This document shows positions 38 to 34,063 of a stretch of 64,000 nt of DNA, one piece after another. Numbering within the stretch: the first letter of the stretch is position 1; every line of letters begins with the position of its first letter. Both the position numbers and the translations under genes were made by a program. The stretch is from Candidatus Berkelbacteria bacterium RIFCSPLOWO2_01_FULL_50_28. GTDB lineage: Bacteria > Patescibacteriota > UBA1384 > 2-12-FULL-50-11. The notes beneath the pieces are model-generated. The model was not told the origin of the DNA, made no database searches, and saw only the letters and a list, made by a program, of their open reading frames with translations. The DNA lies in assembly GCA_001774395.1 (NCBI GenBank), contig MEZX01000003.1:9903-73902 (forward strand). Reading direction: 5' to 3'.

Positions 38-892
38 ATGGGCGACGAACTAAATAAAATTGCGATCTTCCAGAAAAAGGAAGTCCGGAAGGTTATTCAT
101 AAAAACGAATGGTGGTTTGTTATTAATGACATTATTGTGGCGCTTACCGATTCCGCCAATCCAGCCCAGTATTTAAAAAATATTCGCAATCGAGATATCG
201 AACTGAATTCGCTTTTTGAGCCGGTGGAAAAAGGGGGGGTTCAAATTGAACCCCCCCTTGCTTTGTCATTCGATACACCGGGTGGCAAGCAAAAACTTTT
301 ATGTTGGCACACCGAGGGTATCTTTCGCCTGGTTCAGTCGATTCCATCACCCAAAGCCGAGCCGTTCAAGCGATGGCTGGCGAAAGTCGGTTATGAACGG
401 GTTCAAGAGATCGAAGACCCAGAGCTCGCCCAAAAACGGATGAAAGCACTGTATAAAGCCAAAGGCTATTCCGACGGCTGGATCGAAAAACGGGTCCGGG
501 GTATTGTTGTGCGGGGAGAGCTAACCGACGAGTGGCAGAAACGGGGAGTGCAAGAAGGCAGAGAATATTCAATTTTGACGGCGGAGATTTCCAGGGCAGC
601 GTTTGGAGTGACACCGTCAGAATACAAAAAACTCAAAGGTTTGGAACGAGAGAACCTGCGTGACCACATGACTGACCTCGAGCTAATCTTTAGTATGCTT
701 GGCGAAGCTTCTACGACTGAAATTGCCCGCGAAGACGACGCTCAAGGGTTCGACCAAAATAAGGACGCCGCCATCCGTGGCGGTGGTGTGGCCGGCCAAG
801 GCCGCAAACAACTGGAGAAAGAAACGAACAAAAAAGTCATCAGCCCGGCTAATTTCAAAGAGGAAACCAGGAAATTGGAGGATAATGCATAA
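38..892 (+). CDS. Bro-N domain protein, DNA-damage-inducible protein D (DinD)-like / phage antirepressor-like
   Basis: 284-aa ORF. The N-terminus (FQKKEVRKVIHKNEWWFVINDIIVAL...NPAQYL) matches the Bro-N pattern, and the C-terminal region (FKRWLAKVGYERVQEIEDPE...EYSILTAEISRAAFG) resembles the DinD family. Confidence 0.55.
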   Translation: MGDELNKIAIFQKKEVRKVIHKNEWWFVINDIIVALTDSANPAQYLKNIRNRDIELNSLFEPVEKGGVQIEPPLALSFDTPGGKQKLLCWHTEGIFRLVQSIPSPKAEPFKRWLAKVGYERVQEIEDPELAQKRMKALYKAKGYSDGWIEKRVRGIVVRGELTDEWQKRGVQEGREYSILTAEISRAAFGVTPSEYKKLKGLERENLRDHMTDLELIFSMLGEASTTEIAREDDAQGFDQNKDAAIRGGGVAGQGRKQLEKETNKKVISPANFKEETRKLEDNA

Positions 893-11172: not shown

Positions 11173-12144
11173 TCAGGAAGTGGCCAATTTTGGCGAGATG
11201 GTTTGAGCGCAGAGCTGGCGGTACGCGCAGTATCGATCCATTACTCGCTTCTCAGTGGAGTTGGGTCTTCGACGGTAACGCCGACCACCTTTCCGACGAA
11301 CTGAGGGGTCTTGCAGTGAGGCGAGTAGCTGGCTCATCATCCCGCTGATCTGCACCTGAGTCGCCTTGTCACACAGACCTTTTTCGATCGCGTTGTGAAT
11401 AGCACCGCGAATCTTGCCGAGGTAGCTGCGTGGCAGGATGATGCTCCGATTCTGATTGAGTGTGAATCCAGCGATCTTGACTGGCCCGCGGTTCAGGTCA
11501 AGGATTTGGGTCTTACTTTCATGGATCACCAAACCAGCTTCGCGCATCAGGCCGTAGATGGCCTGGCGTTTCTTCTTGCCGATTCTCGTCATTGACGACA
11601 AGGTGATGTCGTCGAGATAACGGGTGTACGTCAGACCGTACTGCTTGCAGAGCTCTATGAGTTTGCTGTCGAGCAGGACTGCCACGTAGAGATTGTAGAG
11701 ATCGGGCGAGGCTGGTGCTCCAGTGAGCAGGCCGCCTTTGTTGTTAAGACAGTAGCGCTGGAGGAACTGTGTGACTACTTCAGATCCAAATAGATCGCGC
11801 GGCAGAGTTGGATCAAGCTCCAACAAGACCTGGACCAACTTCTCTTCGTCAACTGTTCCGTAAGCATCCTTGATGTCTAACAGCAAAAAGTACCTATTGT
11901 TTCGGTGCGGAAAGATGTTGGTGATTGACGAATGGCCTTTCCTGGCGCCGGTGGCCGCGGAAAGATCGGCTGGTAGCGAACGAAGGTAGCTAATCAGTGC
12001 GCTATGAACCTCTCGCATTTGAGCGTTAGGTGCGGAAATGTGACGACGTTTGGTTCTGCCGCCGAGAGGGTTCACATCCTTCAGAAAGAAGTGACGAAAA
12101 GCTGCTCCCTCGACAGGAGCGGCCAATATTGGTTTGTTTGACAT
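11173..12144 (-). CDS. reverse transcriptase, retron-type (putative)
   Basis: 323 aa. RT motifs: NRYFLLLDIKDAYGTV (motif 2), GLLTGAPASPDLYNLYV (motif 4), TYTRYLDDITLSS (YxDD), VIHESKTQIL (motif 6) and KIAGFTL (VTG-like). SITNIFPH is NAxxH-like. No maturase or endonuclease domain. AGGAG is 6 nt upstream of the ATG. Confidence 0.7.
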   Translation of the reverse strand: MSNKPILAAPVEGAAFRHFFLKDVNPLGGRTKRRHISAPNAQMREVHSALISYLRSLPADLSAATGARKGHSSITNIFPHRNNRYFLLLDIKDAYGTVDEEKLVQVLLELDPTLPRDLFGSEVVTQFLQRYCLNNKGGLLTGAPASPDLYNLYVAVLLDSKLIELCKQYGLTYTRYLDDITLSSMTRIGKKKRQAIYGLMREAGLVIHESKTQILDLNRGPVKIAGFTLNQNRSIILPRSYLGKIRGAIHNAIEKGLCDKATQVQISGMMSQLLASLQDPSVRRKGGRRYRRRPNSTEKRVMDRYCAYRQLCAQTISPKLATS

Positions 12145-12239
12145 CTGTTACTCCTGTTGTGGTTGATGTGAAAGGGCGAAGAATTCCAGCGAAGATGGGG
12201 CAGGGAAAGATTACGACTTACTCTTGGTTGAGTCAAGCA

Positions 12240-12326
12240 AAACTTTTTCAAGATGATATTCCCGGCCGGGTTCGTCTCTCTCGTGAACAAAGAGAGCTGT
12301 ACGAACAGCTAAAAAACTTAAGTTAA
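12240..12326 (+). pseudogene. displaced fragment encoding a DnaJ C-terminal tail (KLFQDDIPGRVRLSREQRELYEQLKNLS*)
   Basis: 16/21 residues are identical to the tail of the intact DnaJ-like gene, in frame to a stop. There is no convincing RBS. Confidence 0.4.
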
Positions 12327-13378
12327 CCGGCGTTGGCTTCGAGAAATTCCAGCACCACTTCTTCTTCGGGCAGCAAACCAACGGTATCTACTTCAAGAGT
12401 GCTGATAGTATCGACTTTGGGGCCATTTCCGCTCAAGAAGCTTTCCAAAACAAACGGGTGGACGTAACATTTACGACAAACGGTGGGCGTATTACCAAGC
12501 TCGGCGGCGACGGTTTTAATCGTGGCAGTGATCAACTTTTTGTTCTCGCGTTCGGTTTTGGCGCGCTGACACTCAGAGAGCAGAATCGCCGCCAAAATCG
12601 TCCCTCGCCAGGTACGAAAATCTTTGGCGGTGAACTCTTCGCCAGATGCATCTTGGATATACTCGTTGACATCTGCCGAATCGATACCGTGCAGGTTGTC
12701 ATCCTCGTCAATAAATTGAAATAGCTCTTGCCCGGGCAAGTCTTGGAGCCTGCCGATCAGGCGAGCCAGGCGGCGATCTTCGAACTCGACGGTGTGAAAC
12801 TGGCCGCTTTTACCCTTGAAGTTGATAGTGACTTTAATCGAGCCAACCTCGACGTGACGGTTACGCAAAGTGGTTAGGCCGTACGATTGGTTTTCTTTGG
12901 CGTACTGCTCGTTGCCGACGCGAATCATTGTTTTCTCGAGTAATTTAACGATTGTCGCTAAGACCTTTTCCCGTGGCAGGCCCTGCTTGTTCATGTCTTC
13001 GGACATTTGGGAGCGGATTTTTGGCAGAGCCTTGCCAAATTCGATTGTTTTTTCAAATTTGGACTGATCGCGAAATTTTAACCAGTCGGGATGGTAGCGG
13101 TACTGTTTGCGGCCTTTCTCGTCGGTGCCGATTGCTTGCAGATGGCTGTTAGCAACGGGCGAGATGACGACATTCTCCCAGCCCGGCGGCAGGACGAGCG
13201 AACGAATTCTCTCAAGCGTTTCTGGTTCGGTGATGTTTTCGTCTTCTTTTTTGTAATAGTAAAACTTGTCGCCGCGTTTAGCGCGTTTGATTGTTAGTTG
13301 GTCTTCGCGAAAGTAACGCAACCCGGCCTCTTTGGCCGAAGCGACCGGGTCGCCGGTAAGCTCAATGACGTTTTCCAT
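12323..13378 (-). CDS. DNA topoisomerase IB (poxvirus/eukaryotic-type)
   Basis: 351 aa. GKSGQFH, the catalytic region AELGNTPTVCRKCYVHP (active-site Tyr), and an N-terminal DNA-binding region. Confidence 0.7.
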   Translation of the reverse strand: MENVIELTGDPVASAKEAGLRYFREDQLTIKRAKRGDKFYYYKKEDENITEPETLERIRSLVLPPGWENVVISPVANSHLQAIGTDEKGRKQYRYHPDWLKFRDQSKFEKTIEFGKALPKIRSQMSEDMNKQGLPREKVLATIVKLLEKTMIRVGNEQYAKENQSYGLTTLRNRHVEVGSIKVTINFKGKSGQFHTVEFEDRRLARLIGRLQDLPGQELFQFIDEDDNLHGIDSADVNEYIQDASGEEFTAKDFRTWRGTILAAILLSECQRAKTERENKKLITATIKTVAAELGNTPTVCRKCYVHPFVLESFLSGNGPKVDTISTLEVDTVGLLPEEEVVLEFLEANAG

Positions 13379-13479: not shown

Positions 13480-14010
13480 TCATTCATCGATGATCTGGCC
13501 GATTACGATCTTTTTTTCGAGGCACTCGTCTTTAGAGGTGAAAAGGAAATAACCGGTCAGGATTTTCCCATCAAGAACTGGTTCAATCCAGCTCTCATCC
13601 TCTTGCCACATCTCGTGGTAGGGGATGTTGTGACGCTTCCACCACTTTGGTGCCATCTCTTCGCTTTCAGCTGGATCGCCCTCCCACTTTTCAGCCTCGT
13701 AGACGTAGCATTTCTGATTCCATCTCTTCTCCGGTGCCACGTCTGAGAAGTAGAAATACAGAATTGCCACCAGCCGAACCTTGATGAGGTCAGTGCCAAG
13801 TTCGTCTCTAGTTTCACGAACAACGCAATCTTCCGGCGATTCGTTCAGCTCTTCCTCGGTTTTTCCACCAGAGAAGTTCCACTTGCCTTCCCCAAAACCT
13901 CGTTTCTTCATTGCCAAGTTCACCAGATCGCCCTTGCGAATGATGCCCAGAGTGGTTTTGCGCAAACTACCAACATGAGCCCTGCGATGCTCTGTAAGGT
14001 TCATAGTCAA
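13480..14010 (-). CDS. NUDIX hydrolase
   Basis: Nudix box GGKTEEELNESPEDCVVRETRDELG. Confidence 0.7.
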   Translation of the reverse strand: MTMNLTEHRRAHVGSLRKTTLGIIRKGDLVNLAMKKRGFGEGKWNFSGGKTEEELNESPEDCVVRETRDELGTDLIKVRLVAILYFYFSDVAPEKRWNQKCYVYEAEKWEGDPAESEEMAPKWWKRHNIPYHEMWQEDESWIEPVLDGKILTGYFLFTSKDECLEKKIVIGQIIDE

Positions 14011-14046
14011 GTTGTAACCAAAAAAACTAAGAGAAACAATATCGGT

Positions 14047-14082
14047 TTATAAAAAATAATGCGCGGCCACCGGGGGCCGCGC
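14047..14082 (-). terminator. rho-independent terminator for the minus-strand gene ending at 14096
   Basis: 8-bp GC stem gcgcggcc/ggccgcgc. On the minus strand it is followed by a U-run (plus strand ataaaaaataat). Confidence 0.65.
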
Positions 14083-14095
14083 AAAGGAGTCGGGC

Positions 14096-15538
14096 TCAGA
14101 CAGTATTGCCAAGCAGGTATTCGATTGCCTGCTTAGCACCGTATGAGTCGTTCGGACCATCCATCAGGAACGGGAGAAAATCCAGATTTCCCGCAGTTAC
14201 GACCGCGGGCTCTCCCTTGTTGCCTAATCTGGCCGTGACCATCAGACCATTACAGAGACATCCCCTGCCGACGGTATCTTCGAGTTTCCCGCCCTTAGCG
14301 GTATACTTCTTCTCCGGTTCGGCGGCGCATCTGTAGCCGATGGAACCGTCTGGCTTCTCGTACAGAGAGACCAGAGCGCACTGATTACAGACGCGATCTC
14401 TCTTCCTGAAGACCTCTGGGTCAGCGATCGTCCCTTCCAGCTCTACAACTTGAAAAGGATATCCTGTTGGAGAGATGTCCATATCAGTACGAACTTTCAA
14501 TGTGCCATTGTACCCCTGCCTCCGAACTTCGCGGCGAATTTCAGGATCCATTCCGGAATCGTCACTGAAAGCAAACATAGAGCCGACTTGGATGCCCATT
14601 GCGCCGACCGACAGTGCCCAGCGGAGTCTTTCCGGTGAGGCGCAAGAACCACCGATATAGAACCGCACACCGAGTGCGACGAGCTTGGCATAGTCGACAA
14701 CATCCTTTTCGCCGTAGACAAGAATTTGTTCGCCGTCAGCGTTTATCGCGGGGGTTCTCGGCGGAGCGTTATGCCCGCCAGCCGTTGGCCCTTCAACGAC
14801 AAGAGCGGCGATATCTCCTTCGATCTTCGTCGCAAAGAGAATGGCAAGGGCGGTCGAGGCAACGATGGGAATGAATCCCGGCTTCTTCATCGGCGGCAAT
14901 TCGCTTCCGAAGAACTTTTTGGGATCAAAACTCATCGCATACTTCTTGGTCTTTCCGTCGATACCGGCGTAATCTACGTCGTAGTGGACTACTCTTCCTT
15001 CGGCGATCGCGTCGATCACGTCAGGGATTTGTCGCGGTATGCCAGCACCCACGGTTACGAAGTCCACACCAGCCATCATCGCACCAAGGATACCGCACAT
15101 CAGTGACATGGAAATTTTCGCCATGTAGTTGATGCTGACCGGATTACTGTGTCCCTCTTTCGCTAAGTAGACAAAGGCGTAGTTAGCGCAAATTGTCAGA
15201 GCGATCAAGCGAGCCGGGGGTTTGACAGTAAAAACTGGTTTACCCTTGTACTTTGCTCCAGCCGGAATCCCGCCTTCGACGAAATACTCGTCAAGCACCC
15301 CTTTGGCCATATTCTGGAACGGAAAAGTTGCCAAAGCGCGTCGAAGGTGTCCACCTAGATCGCCTTCTTGCAAAAGCCGCGCTAGCAGAATATCTGCACC
15401 GACACCCGACACGGTACCAAGTTGGCCAAGCATCGAGACGATTCGTGCTAGCGGCCAGATCGAGATATTGAATCCCATCCCTCCCTGGATAACCCGCGGG
15501 AGGCAGTGGACTTCTGTCGAACTGTTAAGTTTCTTCAA
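14096..15538 (-). CDS. nitronate monooxygenase / FabK-like enoyl-ACP reductase II family (NMO, 2-nitropropane dioxygenase-like)
   Basis: IQGGMG and VVEGPTAGGH motifs. 480 aa. Visibly GC-rich. Confidence 0.65.
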   Translation of the reverse strand: MKKLNSSTEVHCLPRVIQGGMGFNISIWPLARIVSMLGQLGTVSGVGADILLARLLQEGDLGGHLRRALATFPFQNMAKGVLDEYFVEGGIPAGAKYKGKPVFTVKPPARLIALTICANYAFVYLAKEGHSNPVSINYMAKISMSLMCGILGAMMAGVDFVTVGAGIPRQIPDVIDAIAEGRVVHYDVDYAGIDGKTKKYAMSFDPKKFFGSELPPMKKPGFIPIVASTALAILFATKIEGDIAALVVEGPTAGGHNAPPRTPAINADGEQILVYGEKDVVDYAKLVALGVRFYIGGSCASPERLRWALSVGAMGIQVGSMFAFSDDSGMDPEIRREVRRQGYNGTLKVRTDMDISPTGYPFQVVELEGTIADPEVFRKRDRVCNQCALVSLYEKPDGSIGYRCAAEPEKKYTAKGGKLEDTVGRGCLCNGLMVTARLGNKGEPAVVTAGNLDFLPFLMDGPNDSYGAKQAIEYLLGNTV

Positions 15539-15637
15539 CGCATCACCTCCTTTAGGGTATGCGGGATTATTTTAACTGCTGAGGCTGGCAAAAGATATGG
15601 ATTAGAGATTATGCTCTTGCGCTCGCCAATCATCAAT

Positions 15638-15815
15638 AACCGAAAACTGGCGACTGCCACAGCGATTTCAAAGCTTGGCGAGAAATCGGAGCGTAGCGAG
15701 ATCCTTCCGGTGGCGAGGAGCCGGTTTTCACCTCTCCCCGAAGGGAAGCGTGGCCAGGTATGGGGTGTGGGGAGGTAGGGGCGGCCTTCGCAACTACGAG
15801 CCCCTCCTCCCCACA
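15638..15815 (+). ncRNA. structured RNA element, copy A (candidate cis-regulatory leader or ncRNA)
   Basis: Homologous to the minus strand of 26851-27090, with compensatory changes in stems (cgatttc/gaaatcg vs cggctttcg/cgaaagccg; tgtggggagg/cctccccaca vs tgtgggggcc/ggcccccaca). Confidence 0.45.
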
Positions 15816-15919
15816 AAAAAGCTGCGGTGCAGTTGCAAACTCACACCGCTGAAAGCGATAGGAACCATTTGACACTCAACCCAGTTGCTTGGATACTAAT
15901 TTGTAGGAGGAACAAGAGA

Positions 15920-16450
15920 GTGCAAGCTGTACCAAGTTGGGACCTATTCTTAACCATCTTTTTCATTGTTAGCATCGGCTACTCCTTTGTGTTGCAACGC
16001 GACAAGGTGGTGGTGACGTTGTTGGCGATTTATGCTGGAATTGTTGTCGCTACGGTGATTGGGCCGTCGGCTCAGGATTTTTTCCAAGGCAACAAGACTG
16101 TTGGTGACCAGCTATTTGTGAAGGCGAACGCCAGCCCGTTCTCAGTTTCGGCAGGACTGTTTATTCTGACGACAATCGTTGTCTCGGTTCGCTCGGGATT
16201 GGGCCGCGGTGGCTCAAGTTCTAGTTCGAAACTTTCAGCCTTTGAGTTGGCGCTGTTTAGCTTTTTGAATTCGGCTTTAATTCTGACGGCGATCTTCTCG
16301 TTTATGGATAAAGAGGCGGCGACCCAGTTTGCCGCTCACTCACGAATTGCCCGAATTTTCATCGACCGTGAGCTTTGGTGGACAATCGCACCGATTATTG
16401 CTCTGGTGGCCACCGGGGGCTTGGGCAAGAGCCGAAGCTCGGATTACTAA
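15920..16450 (+). CDS. multi-pass membrane protein (hypothetical)
   Basis: AGGAGG sits 9 nt upstream of the GTG. Several hydrophobic helices. The ORF track starts further upstream at 15827. Confidence 0.5.
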   Translation: MQAVPSWDLFLTIFFIVSIGYSFVLQRDKVVVTLLAIYAGIVVATVIGPSAQDFFQGNKTVGDQLFVKANASPFSVSAGLFILTTIVVSVRSGLGRGGSSSSSKLSAFELALFSFLNSALILTAIFSFMDKEAATQFAAHSRIARIFIDRELWWTIAPIIALVATGGLGKSRSSDY

Positions 16451-26506: not shown

Positions 26507-26823
26507 TTGCTAAGACGAAGCGTTTCGTACACCCAGTTACCAAGTTGAGTGTCGTAGGGAGTTGTTCGTTTGGTGATCACTGCTCCGATAAACAGCACGG
26601 CGATTATCGCCACGCAAAACATTGTTCGTTTCAGTCCAGTGACGGCCGGTGTTTTGATCGATACGTCGTCGTGGCTTTCGACAATCGCGGTTTCTGTTTG
26701 AGGCGCTGTAACAATCGCCGCGCTCGGTTCGGCAAAGCTTACCACCGAACCTTGATTGATCTGCTGAAGTTGGATCTTTTTAGCCAACTGCGCTTGGAAT
26801 TTTTTCTTGTTTTTCTTAGACAT
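26503..26823 (-). CDS. small lysine-rich membrane-anchored protein
   Basis: Internal Met MSKKNKKK, with a single C-terminal TM helix. Confidence 0.4.
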   Translation of the reverse strand: MSKKNKKKFQAQLAKKIQLQQINQGSVVSFAEPSAAIVTAPQTETAIVESHDDVSIKTPAVTGLKRTMFCVAIIAVLFIGAVITKRTTPYDTQLGNWVYETLRLSN

Positions 26824-26850
26824 CGAGGATATCTTAGGGTTCTTTTTGTC

Positions 26851-27090
26851 CAAACACAAGGCAATTTTGTGGGGGCCGGGGGCCTAGTTGCCGTTCGACG
26901 CTGCTCACGGTGCCGAGCGAAGTCGAGGCACGAAGCGGCCCCGAGGCCCCCACACCCCCTGCCCCGCACGCTTGCCCCAGGCGGGTGGAGAAAACTGGCT
27001 CCTCGCCACCGGAAGGATCTCGCTATCGCTCCGGCTTTCGCAAAGCGAAAGCCGCTGTGGCAGTCGCCGGTTTTCGGTTGATTTTATAGT
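26851..27090 (-). ncRNA. structured RNA element, copy B (homolog of 15638-15815), sitting as the leader of the minus-strand gene 26823
   Basis: The reverse complement aligns with copy A over about 110 nt at high identity, then with covarying stems. Copy B has a larger loop in the distal hairpin. Confidence 0.45.
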
Positions 27091-27117: not shown

Positions 27118-27189
27118 GCGGGAGTAGTTCATCGGTAGAATGTCTCCTTGCCAAGGAGAAGGCAGCGGGTTCAATTCCCGTCTCCCGCT
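27118..27189 (+). tRNA. tRNA-Gly (GCC)
   Basis: Acceptor gcgggag/ctcccgc, anticodon loop ttgccaa. Confidence 0.8.
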
Positions 27190-27248
27190 CAAAATTTCCC
27201 GTTAATTCGTAGAAAAAGGGCTCTACTACAGGTAAAATACAGACGTTC

Positions 27249-27319
27249 GGCCAGGTGCCCGAGTGGTTAGGGAGCGGTCTGCAAAACCGCGTACAGGGGT
27301 TCGATTCCCCTTCTGGCCT
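27249..27319 (+). tRNA. tRNA-Cys (GCA)
   Basis: Acceptor ggccagg/tctggcc, anticodon loop ctgcaaa. Confidence 0.75.
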
Positions 27320-27493
27320 CACTAGCCGCCAAGGCGGCAATCACCGAATAACCAAATAAACTAATAATCAAAATAAATCCTAGTTAGTATCCTGATTTTG
27401 TTATTCGGAAATTCTTTGAAAATTTGATGATTTGGTTATTTTATAATTCCAAATGGTTGACCGATTCATCTTCTTGGTCTACTATTTGTCAGA

Positions 27494-29118: not shown

Positions 29119-29201
29119 GCCCGGATGGCGAAATGGTAGACGCGCACGCTTCAGGTGCGTGTGAGCGTAAGCTCATGGAGGTTCAAGTCCTCTTCCGGGC
29201 A
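29119..29201 (+). tRNA. tRNA-Leu (CAG)
   Basis: Acceptor gcccgga/tccgggc, anticodon loop ttcaggt, long variable arm. Confidence 0.8.
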
Positions 29202-29204
29202 CGA

Positions 29205-29288
29205 GCGCGAGTGCTGTAATTGGTAGCCAGGCATCCTTGAGGTGGATGTGGGGGTAACCCCGTGGAGGTTCAAGTCCTCTCTCGCGCA
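29205..29288 (+). tRNA. tRNA-Leu (GAG)
   Basis: Acceptor gcgcgag/ctcgcgc, anticodon loop ttgaggt, long variable arm. It lies 3 nt after the previous tRNA. Confidence 0.75.
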
Positions 29289-29316
29289 CAGATCGAAAAA
29301 ATAGGGCTGTAAAGCC

Positions 29317-33806: not shown

Positions 33807-33889
33807 GCCGGGGTGTTGGAATGGTAGACAATAGTGACTTAAAATCACTTGCTCGTAAGAGCGTGCGGGTTCGAGTCCCGCCCCCGGCA
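33807..33889 (+). tRNA. tRNA-Leu (TAA)
   Basis: Acceptor gccgggg/ccccggc, anticodon loop cttaaaa, long variable arm. Confidence 0.8.
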
Positions 33890-33981
33890 CGACCGATTGG
33901 GGTTCGACTGCGAGCCGTCCTAGGCGGCGAGAAGTTGGAGTTCACTGAAAGTGGACGGAAAATCCCCACCTCGGGCACAGA

Positions 33982-34053
33982 GGGCAGTTAGCTCAGTGGT
34001 AGAGCGTCTCGTTTACACCGAGAGGGTCGTAGGTTCGAATCCTACACTGCCCA
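33982..34053 (+). tRNA. tRNA-Val (TAC)
   Basis: Acceptor gggcagt/actgccc, anticodon loop tttacac. Confidence 0.8.
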
Positions 34054-34063
34054 CTTTTTTCAC

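Follow-up and report, generated by a model that had tools for sequence, protein, structure and literature searches.

A modular element with covarying structure, repeated in intergenic DNA of Berkelbacteria, as a candidate family of small RNAs

The stretch analysed here, called the window, comprises 64,000 nucleotides (nt) of Candidatus Berkelbacteria bacterium RIFCSPLOWO2_01_FULL_50_28 (assembly GCA_001774395.1, contig MEZX01000003.1, positions 9,903 to 73,902 of the forward strand) and carries two intergenic copies of a structured element, copy A (15640-15833, + strand) and copy B (27077-26864, - strand), both present where a preliminary description of the sequence had put them. The copies have 77% column identity over about 320 nt in a pairwise alignment and share two 27-nt blocks, AACCGAAAACYGGCGACTGCCACAGCG and GCGAGATCCTTCCGGTGGCGAGGAGCC (15638-15664 and 15696-15722 on the + strand; 27079-27053 and 27023-26997 on the - strand), each of which occurs exactly twice in the window, with none expected in shuffles. 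The fold z-scores are -2.8 for copy A and -4.0 for copy B. Reverse-strand open reading frames (ORFs) at 15535-15816 and 26545-27081 were considered as a possible small ORF within the element; they are frame-shifted between the copies by 2-nt length differences, and the element is therefore not coding.

The element is about 145-250 nt long and is built of three domains, D1 to D3, often followed by a fourth, D4. D1 is a long 5' hairpin closed by helix P1 (GAAAAC/GUUUUC), with an interchangeable apical module and often a purine-rich internal loop next to P1. D2 consists of a weak helix, P5, a hairpin of 3 base pairs (bp), P6, and a nearly invariant AGCGUG, and it is followed by D3, a GC-rich hairpin of 16-18 bp with the loop CUUCGCAAC (loop consensus G(G)C(C)UUCGCAAYU). 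D4, a GC hairpin after an A-run, is clear in seven copies besides A (six full copies and the truncated copy L030), with the sequences GCCGC-UGGAA-GCGGC, GCGGC-UGUAG-GCCGC and GCGAC-GCA-GUCGC (L080a, L097c, L030). Further hairpins are inserted in the loops in a lineage-specific manner: A, B and L079a carry P3, and B and L079c carry a hairpin within the D3 loop. Reading by eye placed an A/T-rich -10-like box (TAnAAT-like) 1-8 nt 5' of (C)CGAAAA in 13 of 13 copies. The parts of copies A and B, with the features next to them, are as follows.

15633-15639, + strand: A/T-rich -10-like box TCAATAA of copy A, just 5' of CCGAAAAC (read by eye)
15642-15729, + strand: D1 of copy A, class I long form (fold and P1 pair table)
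15642-15651 with 15720-15729, + strand: P1 of copy A (fold and pair table)
15652-53 and 15718-19, + strand: tandem GA/GA internal loop of copy A (fold)
15654-15660 with 15710-15717, + strand: P2 of copy A (fold)
15663-15669 with 15682-15688, + strand: inserted P3 hairpin of copy A (fold; the short-form relatives are without the P3 insertion)
15696-15722, + strand: conserved apical block of D1 of copy A
15730-15765, + strand: D2 of copy A, with weak P5 (ACCU/AGGU), P6, nearly invariant AGCGUG and a G-rich linker (covariance-model alignment and pair counts)
15737-15739 with 15743-15745, + strand: P6 of copy A, 3 bp with a GAA loop (covariance-model alignment)
15766-15815, + strand: D3 of copy A, GC-rich, with an outer stem of 10 bp, a bulged U, an inner stem of 6 bp and the conserved apical loop GGCCUUCGCAACUACGA (fold and pair counts)
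15816-15833, + strand: A-run of copy A, then the small D4 hairpin GCUGC-GGU-GCAGU, weaker than D4 elsewhere (sequence)
15869-15897, + strand: sigma-70-like promoter TTGACA-17-GATACT, outside the element, 10/12 matches (consensus scan)
15905-15910 and 15920, + strand: ribosome-binding site and GTG start of the gene downstream of copy A (ORF and exact protein confirmed)
27081-27088, - strand: A/T-rich -10-like box TATAAAAT of copy B (read by eye)
26990-27075, - strand: D1 of copy B, class I long form (fold and pair table)
27075-27066 with 26999-26990, - strand: P1 of copy B, with one C.A mismatch
27053-27045 with 27041-27033, - strand: P3 hairpin of copy B
26955-26989, - strand: D2 of copy B, with P6 as GCC/GGC, then AAGCGUGC (sequence and pair counts)
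26868-26954, - strand: D3 of copy B, with an extra hairpin in the apical loop between CUUCG and GCAACUA (fold; same insertion in L079c)
26864-26867, - strand: A-run after D3 of copy B; the downstream ORF has its ATG at 26823

Copy B starts 41 nt from a divergent tRNA-Gly(GCC) gene, and its -10-like box overlaps, on the opposite strand, the promoter-like site TTGATT-17-TAGAAT of that gene. Each copy precedes a gene whose product is a membrane or membrane-anchored protein, as had been described, and neither protein belongs to a Pfam family. The distance of about 100 nt between copy A and its gene was confirmed (end of D3 at 15815, GTG start at 15920), whereas about 44 nt, instead of the 30 nt given earlier, separate the end of D3 of copy B (26868) from its ATG (26823).

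Two helices that had been described as retaining their pairing through double substitutions do so, both when read in the sequence and in the predicted folds: P3 is CGAUUUC/GAAAUCG in copy A and CGGCUUUCG/CGAAAGCCG in copy B, and the outer stem of D3 is UGUGGGGAGG/CCUCCCCACA in copy A and UGUGGGGGCC/GGCCCCCACA in copy B. The compensation proposed for the Y:R pair of gaaaacYggc/gccRgttttc has to be withdrawn: this pair is U.G in copy A and a C.A mismatch in copy B, that is, one broken pair. The P1 helix to which it belongs stands, with a sixth pair that is C-G, A-U or G-C in other copies and with an upper part that covaries.

The family comprises 12 full copies, namely A, B and 10 copies in related Berkelbacteria contigs, together with the truncated copy L030 (numbers with L are our labels, with lower-case letters for individual copies). 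Scanning of metagenomes with a 19-mer gave 16 loci, of which three, L017, L028 and L030, are true relatives; their 5' hairpin has no counterpart of the 33-35 nt P3 insertion of the window copies. L028 is a Berkelbacterium with a MetRS 62% identical to that of the window organism, and a second, diverged copy in it (L028b) was found by a profile search. Syntenic metG regions fetched from relatives contained three copies in L079, two in L080 and two in L097. L079 encodes a MetRS identical to that named for the window organism and thus represents the same or a near-identical organism, and the window organism has at least five copies in the 85 kb sampled. Copies within one genome are not close to each other: A and B are old and diverged, L028a and L028b are far less alike, and L079a shares only the scaffold with L079b and L079c. 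Five classes of D1 apex are distinguished.

Class I: A, B and L079a (long form); L017, L028a and L030 (short form)
Class II: L028b and L080a
Class III: L079b and L079c
Class IV: L080c and L097a
Class V: L097c

The truncated copy, L030 97-330, has the 5' part of a class I D1 fused straight to the D4 module AAAGCCGCGACGCAGUCGCAGAU, which is also found in L097c and L080a; next come TTGACA-17-TAATTT and a run of GTGG repeats resembling MraZ boxes, just before mraZ. Copy A is unchanged over the whole compared region in 11 other contigs of the same strain, and five further contigs of this strain hold only a part of it or a scaffold gap. The Logan unitigs L006, L015 and L016 of the window organism start or end within the conserved class I block of copy A, showing that de Bruijn assemblies of this organism are interrupted at the repeat.

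Searches outside these contigs gave no additional members. The GTDB species representatives yielded only chance coding matches to two exact patterns, the first of which held the GAG of the long form and was blind to short forms; no family member was found among viral contigs scanned with four patterns, and blastn gave no match in phage and plasmid collections. The literature searched on structured RNAs of Berkelbacteria, the candidate phyla radiation (CPR) or Patescibacteria contained no description of the element. Two weaker candidates were discarded. The marginal covariance-model match at window 229-296 is an ordinary terminator-like hairpin (GGGGGGG-loop-CCCCCCC with a T-run), and a match to GATCCTTCCGGTGG in L081 belongs to a long hairpin that is unrelated to the family. 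A long hairpin distinct from the element (CCCCGCACU...AGUGCGGGG) stands after a 158-aa gene upstream of the G5-domain gene in L079 (6894-7040) and L081 (6750-6815), and its L081 version happens to include GATCCTTCCGGTGG.

For the analysis of covariation, eight copies were registered by hand with N padding and used to build a covariance model, and 12 copies were then aligned to the model. In this alignment, 91.5% of the cells are paired, 17 of the 26 pairs are changed on both sides, and 42 cells are doubly changed; none of 500 shuffles reached the observed scores, and sliding the partners by 1-3 columns gave 42-56% pairing. D3 is 94.5% paired, with 13 of its 18 pairs changing on both sides, and P6 is 100% paired, with CG, GC, UA and AU all occurring as its middle pair, while P5 is weak (76% paired). 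The upper part of P1 covaries between L028b and L080a, and the two L097 copies, which were outside the model building, still fit the model. G.U pairs are more frequent than A.C pairs (18 vs 5), and the strand given in the preliminary description had the more stable fold in all 10 copies tested (summed energies of -803.9 vs -717.6 kcal/mol); the G.U excess and the fold-energy asymmetry together indicate that the structure is read on that strand. It exists there as RNA, or possibly as single-stranded DNA. Conserved loops, covarying stems, insertions in loops and a strand bias are hallmarks of functional RNAs, and the strong covariation across the 12 copies bears out the earlier opinion that the element is a structure-constrained RNA and not a decaying DNA repeat. 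Since old, diverged copies in the same genome keep their pairing by double substitutions while their loops remain fixed, long-term selection on the RNA, rather than recent copying, is indicated.

Some further regularities of the fold were seen. The D2 junction may pair with the D3 loop in a tertiary contact (window 15752-15755 with 15783-15786), as GGCC/GGCC in A, L079a and L028b, as GAC/GUC in L079c and only as GC/GC in the others; the change in L079c is compensatory, in a sample too small and too related for testing. The tetramers AGCG and GCGA, mostly at helix-loop borders, were observed 32 and 30 times in 1,685 nt of 10 full copies, against about 10 expected from mononucleotide shuffles, and this roughly threefold excess may reflect either a repeated recognition motif or shared ancestry. 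An anti-Shine-Dalgarno loop (CUUCC) was considered and dropped, because UUCC sits in the apical stem, not the loop, in the folds of short class I and class II.

The modules of the element are exchanged. Within a class, the D1 apex is nearly invariant across copies and species and the stem below it covaries; the 25-nt class II apex is identical in L028b and L080a above a stem with two double changes, in organisms whose MetRS proteins are 65% identical. The 50-nt class IV D1 is identical in L080c and L097a, which occupy different loci. L028a and L097a, at the orthologous rsmA locus, agree in both flanks and in D2-D3, and the interiors of D1 are unrelated (class I vs class IV), which means that modules have been exchanged. 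The CvpA copies of L080 and L097 likewise differ in D1 class, and the small accessory genes beside the copies between CvpA and mnmA differ from species to species. The spacer between the G5-domain gene and rsmA is occupied in L079, L028 and L097, and that between CvpA and mnmA in L079, L028, L080 and L097. L081, L082 and L083 have no copy at either locus.

The element is independent of any one neighbouring gene. Six of the 12 full copies (L017, L028b, L079b, L079c, L080c and L097c) face the 3' end of a convergent gene, and the co-oriented downstream genes of the other six are unrelated, encoding a membrane protein, a small transmembrane protein, RsmA in three cases and DnaX. These data bear directly on the proposal that the element is a cis-acting, riboswitch-like leader of downstream membrane-protein genes, which was suggested by the co-orientation of A and B with such genes about 100 and 44 nt downstream and would suit the highly conserved, aptamer-like class I apex. 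The sigma-70-like promoter at 15869-15897, a consensus match only, sits between copy A and its gene, and a similar TTGACA-17-TAATTT, read by eye and again only a consensus match, lies between the element and mraZ in L030. The orthologues of the 176-aa membrane-protein gene in L075, L076 and L077, three related Berkelbacteria, have upstream spacers of only 49, 102 and 82 nt without any covariance-model or nhmmer match, although the family may be missing from the whole of one of these genomes. No terminator/antiterminator or alternative sequestering a Shine-Dalgarno sequence is evident. Given the convergent genes, the unrelated neighbours, the promoter after copy A and the element-free orthologues, the leader proposal is rejected as largely refuted, and we leave it a very slight chance.

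The position of many copies between convergent genes also suggests transcription punctuation, in which D1, as an A-tract, GC-rich hairpin and U-tract, would be a bidirectional intrinsic terminator or insulator and the remainder would be accessory. D1 indeed has GAAAA(C/A) at its 5' flank and (G)UUUU(U/C) at its 3' flank, and its 3' half was flagged as terminator-like in L017 and L079 by a consensus scan. However, the U-tract is only 4-5 nt long and is base-paired to the A-tract within P1, an A-run and not a U-run follows D3, and invariant loops, an invariant AGCGUG and class-specific apices are not required by terminators. Moreover, L017, L079c and L080c have a separate hairpin and U-run of the upstream gene, read directly, immediately before the element. 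A role in punctuation is accordingly given a small chance.

Copy A lies at a synteny break: in L077 (8860-10001), the gene for a type IB topoisomerase (Top1B) abuts the membrane-protein gene, and in the window (13480-15538) the two are separated by a NUDIX gene, an NMO-like gene and copy A. The topoisomerase gene (12323-13378) is adjoined by a gene for a 323-aa retron-type reverse transcriptase (RT; 11173-12144, - strand), the best PADLOC matches of which are the retron RT clades II-A, III-A and VI, and the 178-nt spacer upstream of it (12145-12322), the expected place of msr-msd, is not unusually structured (z = -0.2). The window contains 14 tRNA genes, several of them in small clusters (e.g. 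27118-27320, 29119-29289 and 33807-34054). An identity of the element as a retron msr-msd was rejected: the RT gene is 3.5 kb and three genes away from copy A, P1 encloses D1 only, and the other 10 full copies have no RT in the surrounding 2-21 kb that were sampled. An identity as a miniature inverted-repeat transposable element was also rejected. P1, the only long inverted repeat that involves the 5' end, closes D1 and not the unit, inspection of 13 copies by eye showed no duplication of a flank (the empty-site comparison being limited by divergence), and the copies compared within a genome are not near-identical (77% for A and B; only the scaffold in common for L028a and L028b, and for L079a and L079b/c).

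A more general possibility is a site of DNA recombination or transposition, folding as a single-stranded hairpin like integron attC sites or IS200/IS605 ends and bordering accessory genes. Such a site would account for copies at synteny breaks beside variable small genes and tRNA genes and for a structure that is kept more than the stem sequence, and even the strand bias is compatible with it, because G.T wobble is tolerated in folded single-stranded DNA. Against it, P1 (GAAAAC/GUUUUC) does not fit the R''/R' consensus RYYYAAC/GTTRRRY of attC, the copies are dispersed and form no cassette arrays, and no integrase, Y1 transposase or IS110-type recombinase gene stands beside any copy. A bridge RNA of the IS110 type or another guide RNA was rejected on similar grounds, no recombinase or effector gene being present in any flank. 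The longest match of D1 to its own flank averages 7.3 nt against 8.4 nt in cross-copy controls, so complementarity is not above these controls, and a DNA site would leave the invariant D2 and D3 loops unexplained. We therefore see only a slight chance that the element is a DNA site.

Comparison with Rfam 15 (4227 models, membership being defined by a score at or above the family gathering threshold) confirmed the earlier failure to match the element to known RNA families. At the gathering threshold, the window contained only 14 tRNAs. Copies A and B gave only chance matches of microRNA or snoRNA type at E<=10, far below threshold, and four other loci with eight copies gave, at E<=1, only Chlorobi-1 over the elements, with 19.6 bits against a threshold of 50. 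Signal recognition particle RNA, 5S rRNA, T-box, K-turn, group II domain V, H/ACA, twister and hammerhead were considered and rejected, as the Rfam models were silent or the defining motifs did not fit.

The reading that we favour, and to which we give about even credence, is that A and B belong to an undescribed family of modular small RNAs, each standing alone, in a subclade of Berkelbacteria. Each copy would most likely be a small transcription unit of its own on the strand specified above and would act as a free RNA in trans. L017, L079c and L080c, behind the hairpin and U-run of an upstream gene, would need a promoter of their own. The constant part (the P1 base GAAAAC/GUUUUC, AGCGUG of D2, D3 with CUUCGCAAC and often D4) would be a scaffold for a shared partner, probably a protein, and the apical module of D1 would determine which target or partner a given paralogue recognises. 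An extension of this reading, which we think improbable, is a new modular RNA system in which a dedicated protein binds the scaffold and exchangeable D1 cassettes aim it at RNA or DNA targets; such a system may be functionally analogous to guide-RNA or snoRNA-type systems, while being unrelated to the known ones.

Several results weigh against the favoured reading. The consensus scan revealed no complete -35/-10 promoter upstream of any copy and no -35 partner for the -10-like box, which was read by eye. Most copies have no clear intrinsic terminator after them; D4 is followed by A-rich sequence, with a canonical hairpin and U-run in some copies only (in L017, shared with the convergent fba). 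When 85 kb of the window organism's genome were searched by 11-mers for antisense targets, complementarity of >=11 nt did not exceed chance, and no protein family is common to the neighbourhoods of the copies. The pair counts lean towards structure, as the seed was registered by hand and the larger alignments were fitted to the model, and the copies are related and thus not independent events. Finally, copy number, patchiness and module shuffling are typical of structured repeats too. Searches with the model and with profiles found no copy in the sampled regions of L075, L076, L077, L081, L082 and L083 (L075 and L082 both from the complete genome CP066697.1), L079a and L079b stand head to head, L097 has a copy in the rsmA spacer and L080 has none in spite of 89% MetRS identity, and the reassortment of D1 at one locus also fits a repeat.

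The last points also fit an intergenic structured repeat of the BOX/ERIC/Correia kind, spread or shuffled by recombination and devoid of a dedicated function in trans, whose co-transcribed hairpins would affect the stability, processing or termination of neighbouring mRNAs. Several copies per genome with a patchy presence among species, organisms with 89% identical MetRS filling different loci, the head-to-head pair, the swapping of D1 modules at one locus, and the modular build with optional modules and the deletion variant L030 (D1 fused to D4) are all as expected of such a repeat, as are the copies at synteny break points beside accessory genes and the Logan unitigs broken within the element. 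The element is multi-copy, intergenic, modular, RNA-folding and variably present, as BOX- and ERIC-like sequences are, a description that is also compatible with a dedicated RNA function. On the other hand, copies in the same genome are old and diverged, with pairing kept by double substitutions and loops fixed. Neither terminal inverted repeats around the whole unit nor target-site duplications were observed, two loci hold a copy in three or four species each, and a DNA-level repeat has no need of strand asymmetry. We regard the repeat as the main rival reading, but a rather unlikely one.

Bacteria of the CPR have tiny genomes and very short intergenic spacers, and to our knowledge almost nothing is known of their regulatory RNAs. 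A multi-copy RNA of 150-250 nt costs space, is kept by compensatory evolution and in some parts outdoes a housekeeping protein in conservation, and it is therefore presumably important. For metatranscriptomics and the search for partner proteins in Berkelbacteria, the family offers a concrete target supported by covariation, and its exchangeable 5' module is an unusual feature. Should it prove to be no more than a structured repeat, it would remain the first family of this kind on record for the lineage, within the literature searched, and a practical cause of assembly breaks.

Among known systems, intrinsic (bidirectional) terminators resemble the A-tract, GC-rich stem and U-tract of D1, but the D1 stem is much longer and more elaborate, with invariant apices and a short, paired U-tract, and D2-D4 have no counterpart. 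Riboswitches and other cis-acting leaders are similar in their compact, covariation-supported intergenic fold, sometimes directly upstream of a gene, and the element differs from them in having no consistent gene association, evident expression platform or Rfam riboswitch match. With the IS110 bridge RNA, the omega RNA of IscB/TnpB and the crRNA-tracrRNA pair, it has in common a constant scaffold and a variable module in several versions per genome; it has no adjacent effector, however, and its variable module is not complementary to the flanks and comes in a few conserved classes rather than in free form, so that the likeness to guide RNAs is an analogy and not evidence of relationship. The streptococcal csRNAs, Qrr1-5 of Vibrio and LhrC1-5 of Listeria are likewise sets of several stand-alone intergenic paralogues with a common scaffold and paralogue-specific parts. 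These are shorter (about 90-150 nt) and have recognised promoters, rho-independent terminators, single-stranded seeds and known targets, whereas the element, known here from sequence alone, is larger, almost fully helical and not homologous to them. BOX, ERIC and Correia (CREE) sequences are similar in being multi-copy, intergenic, ORF-free and modular with optional sub-units, 100-250 nt long and strongly folding as RNA, in either orientation to their neighbours and with a patchy presence among relatives. The element has no sequence similarity to them, its copies seem few, at about 1 per 15-30 kb where the family occurs, and it is without terminal inverted repeats spanning the unit; it is further set apart from them by deep divergence with conserved loops and covarying stems, by a clear strand bias and by two loci that are conserved in three or four species.

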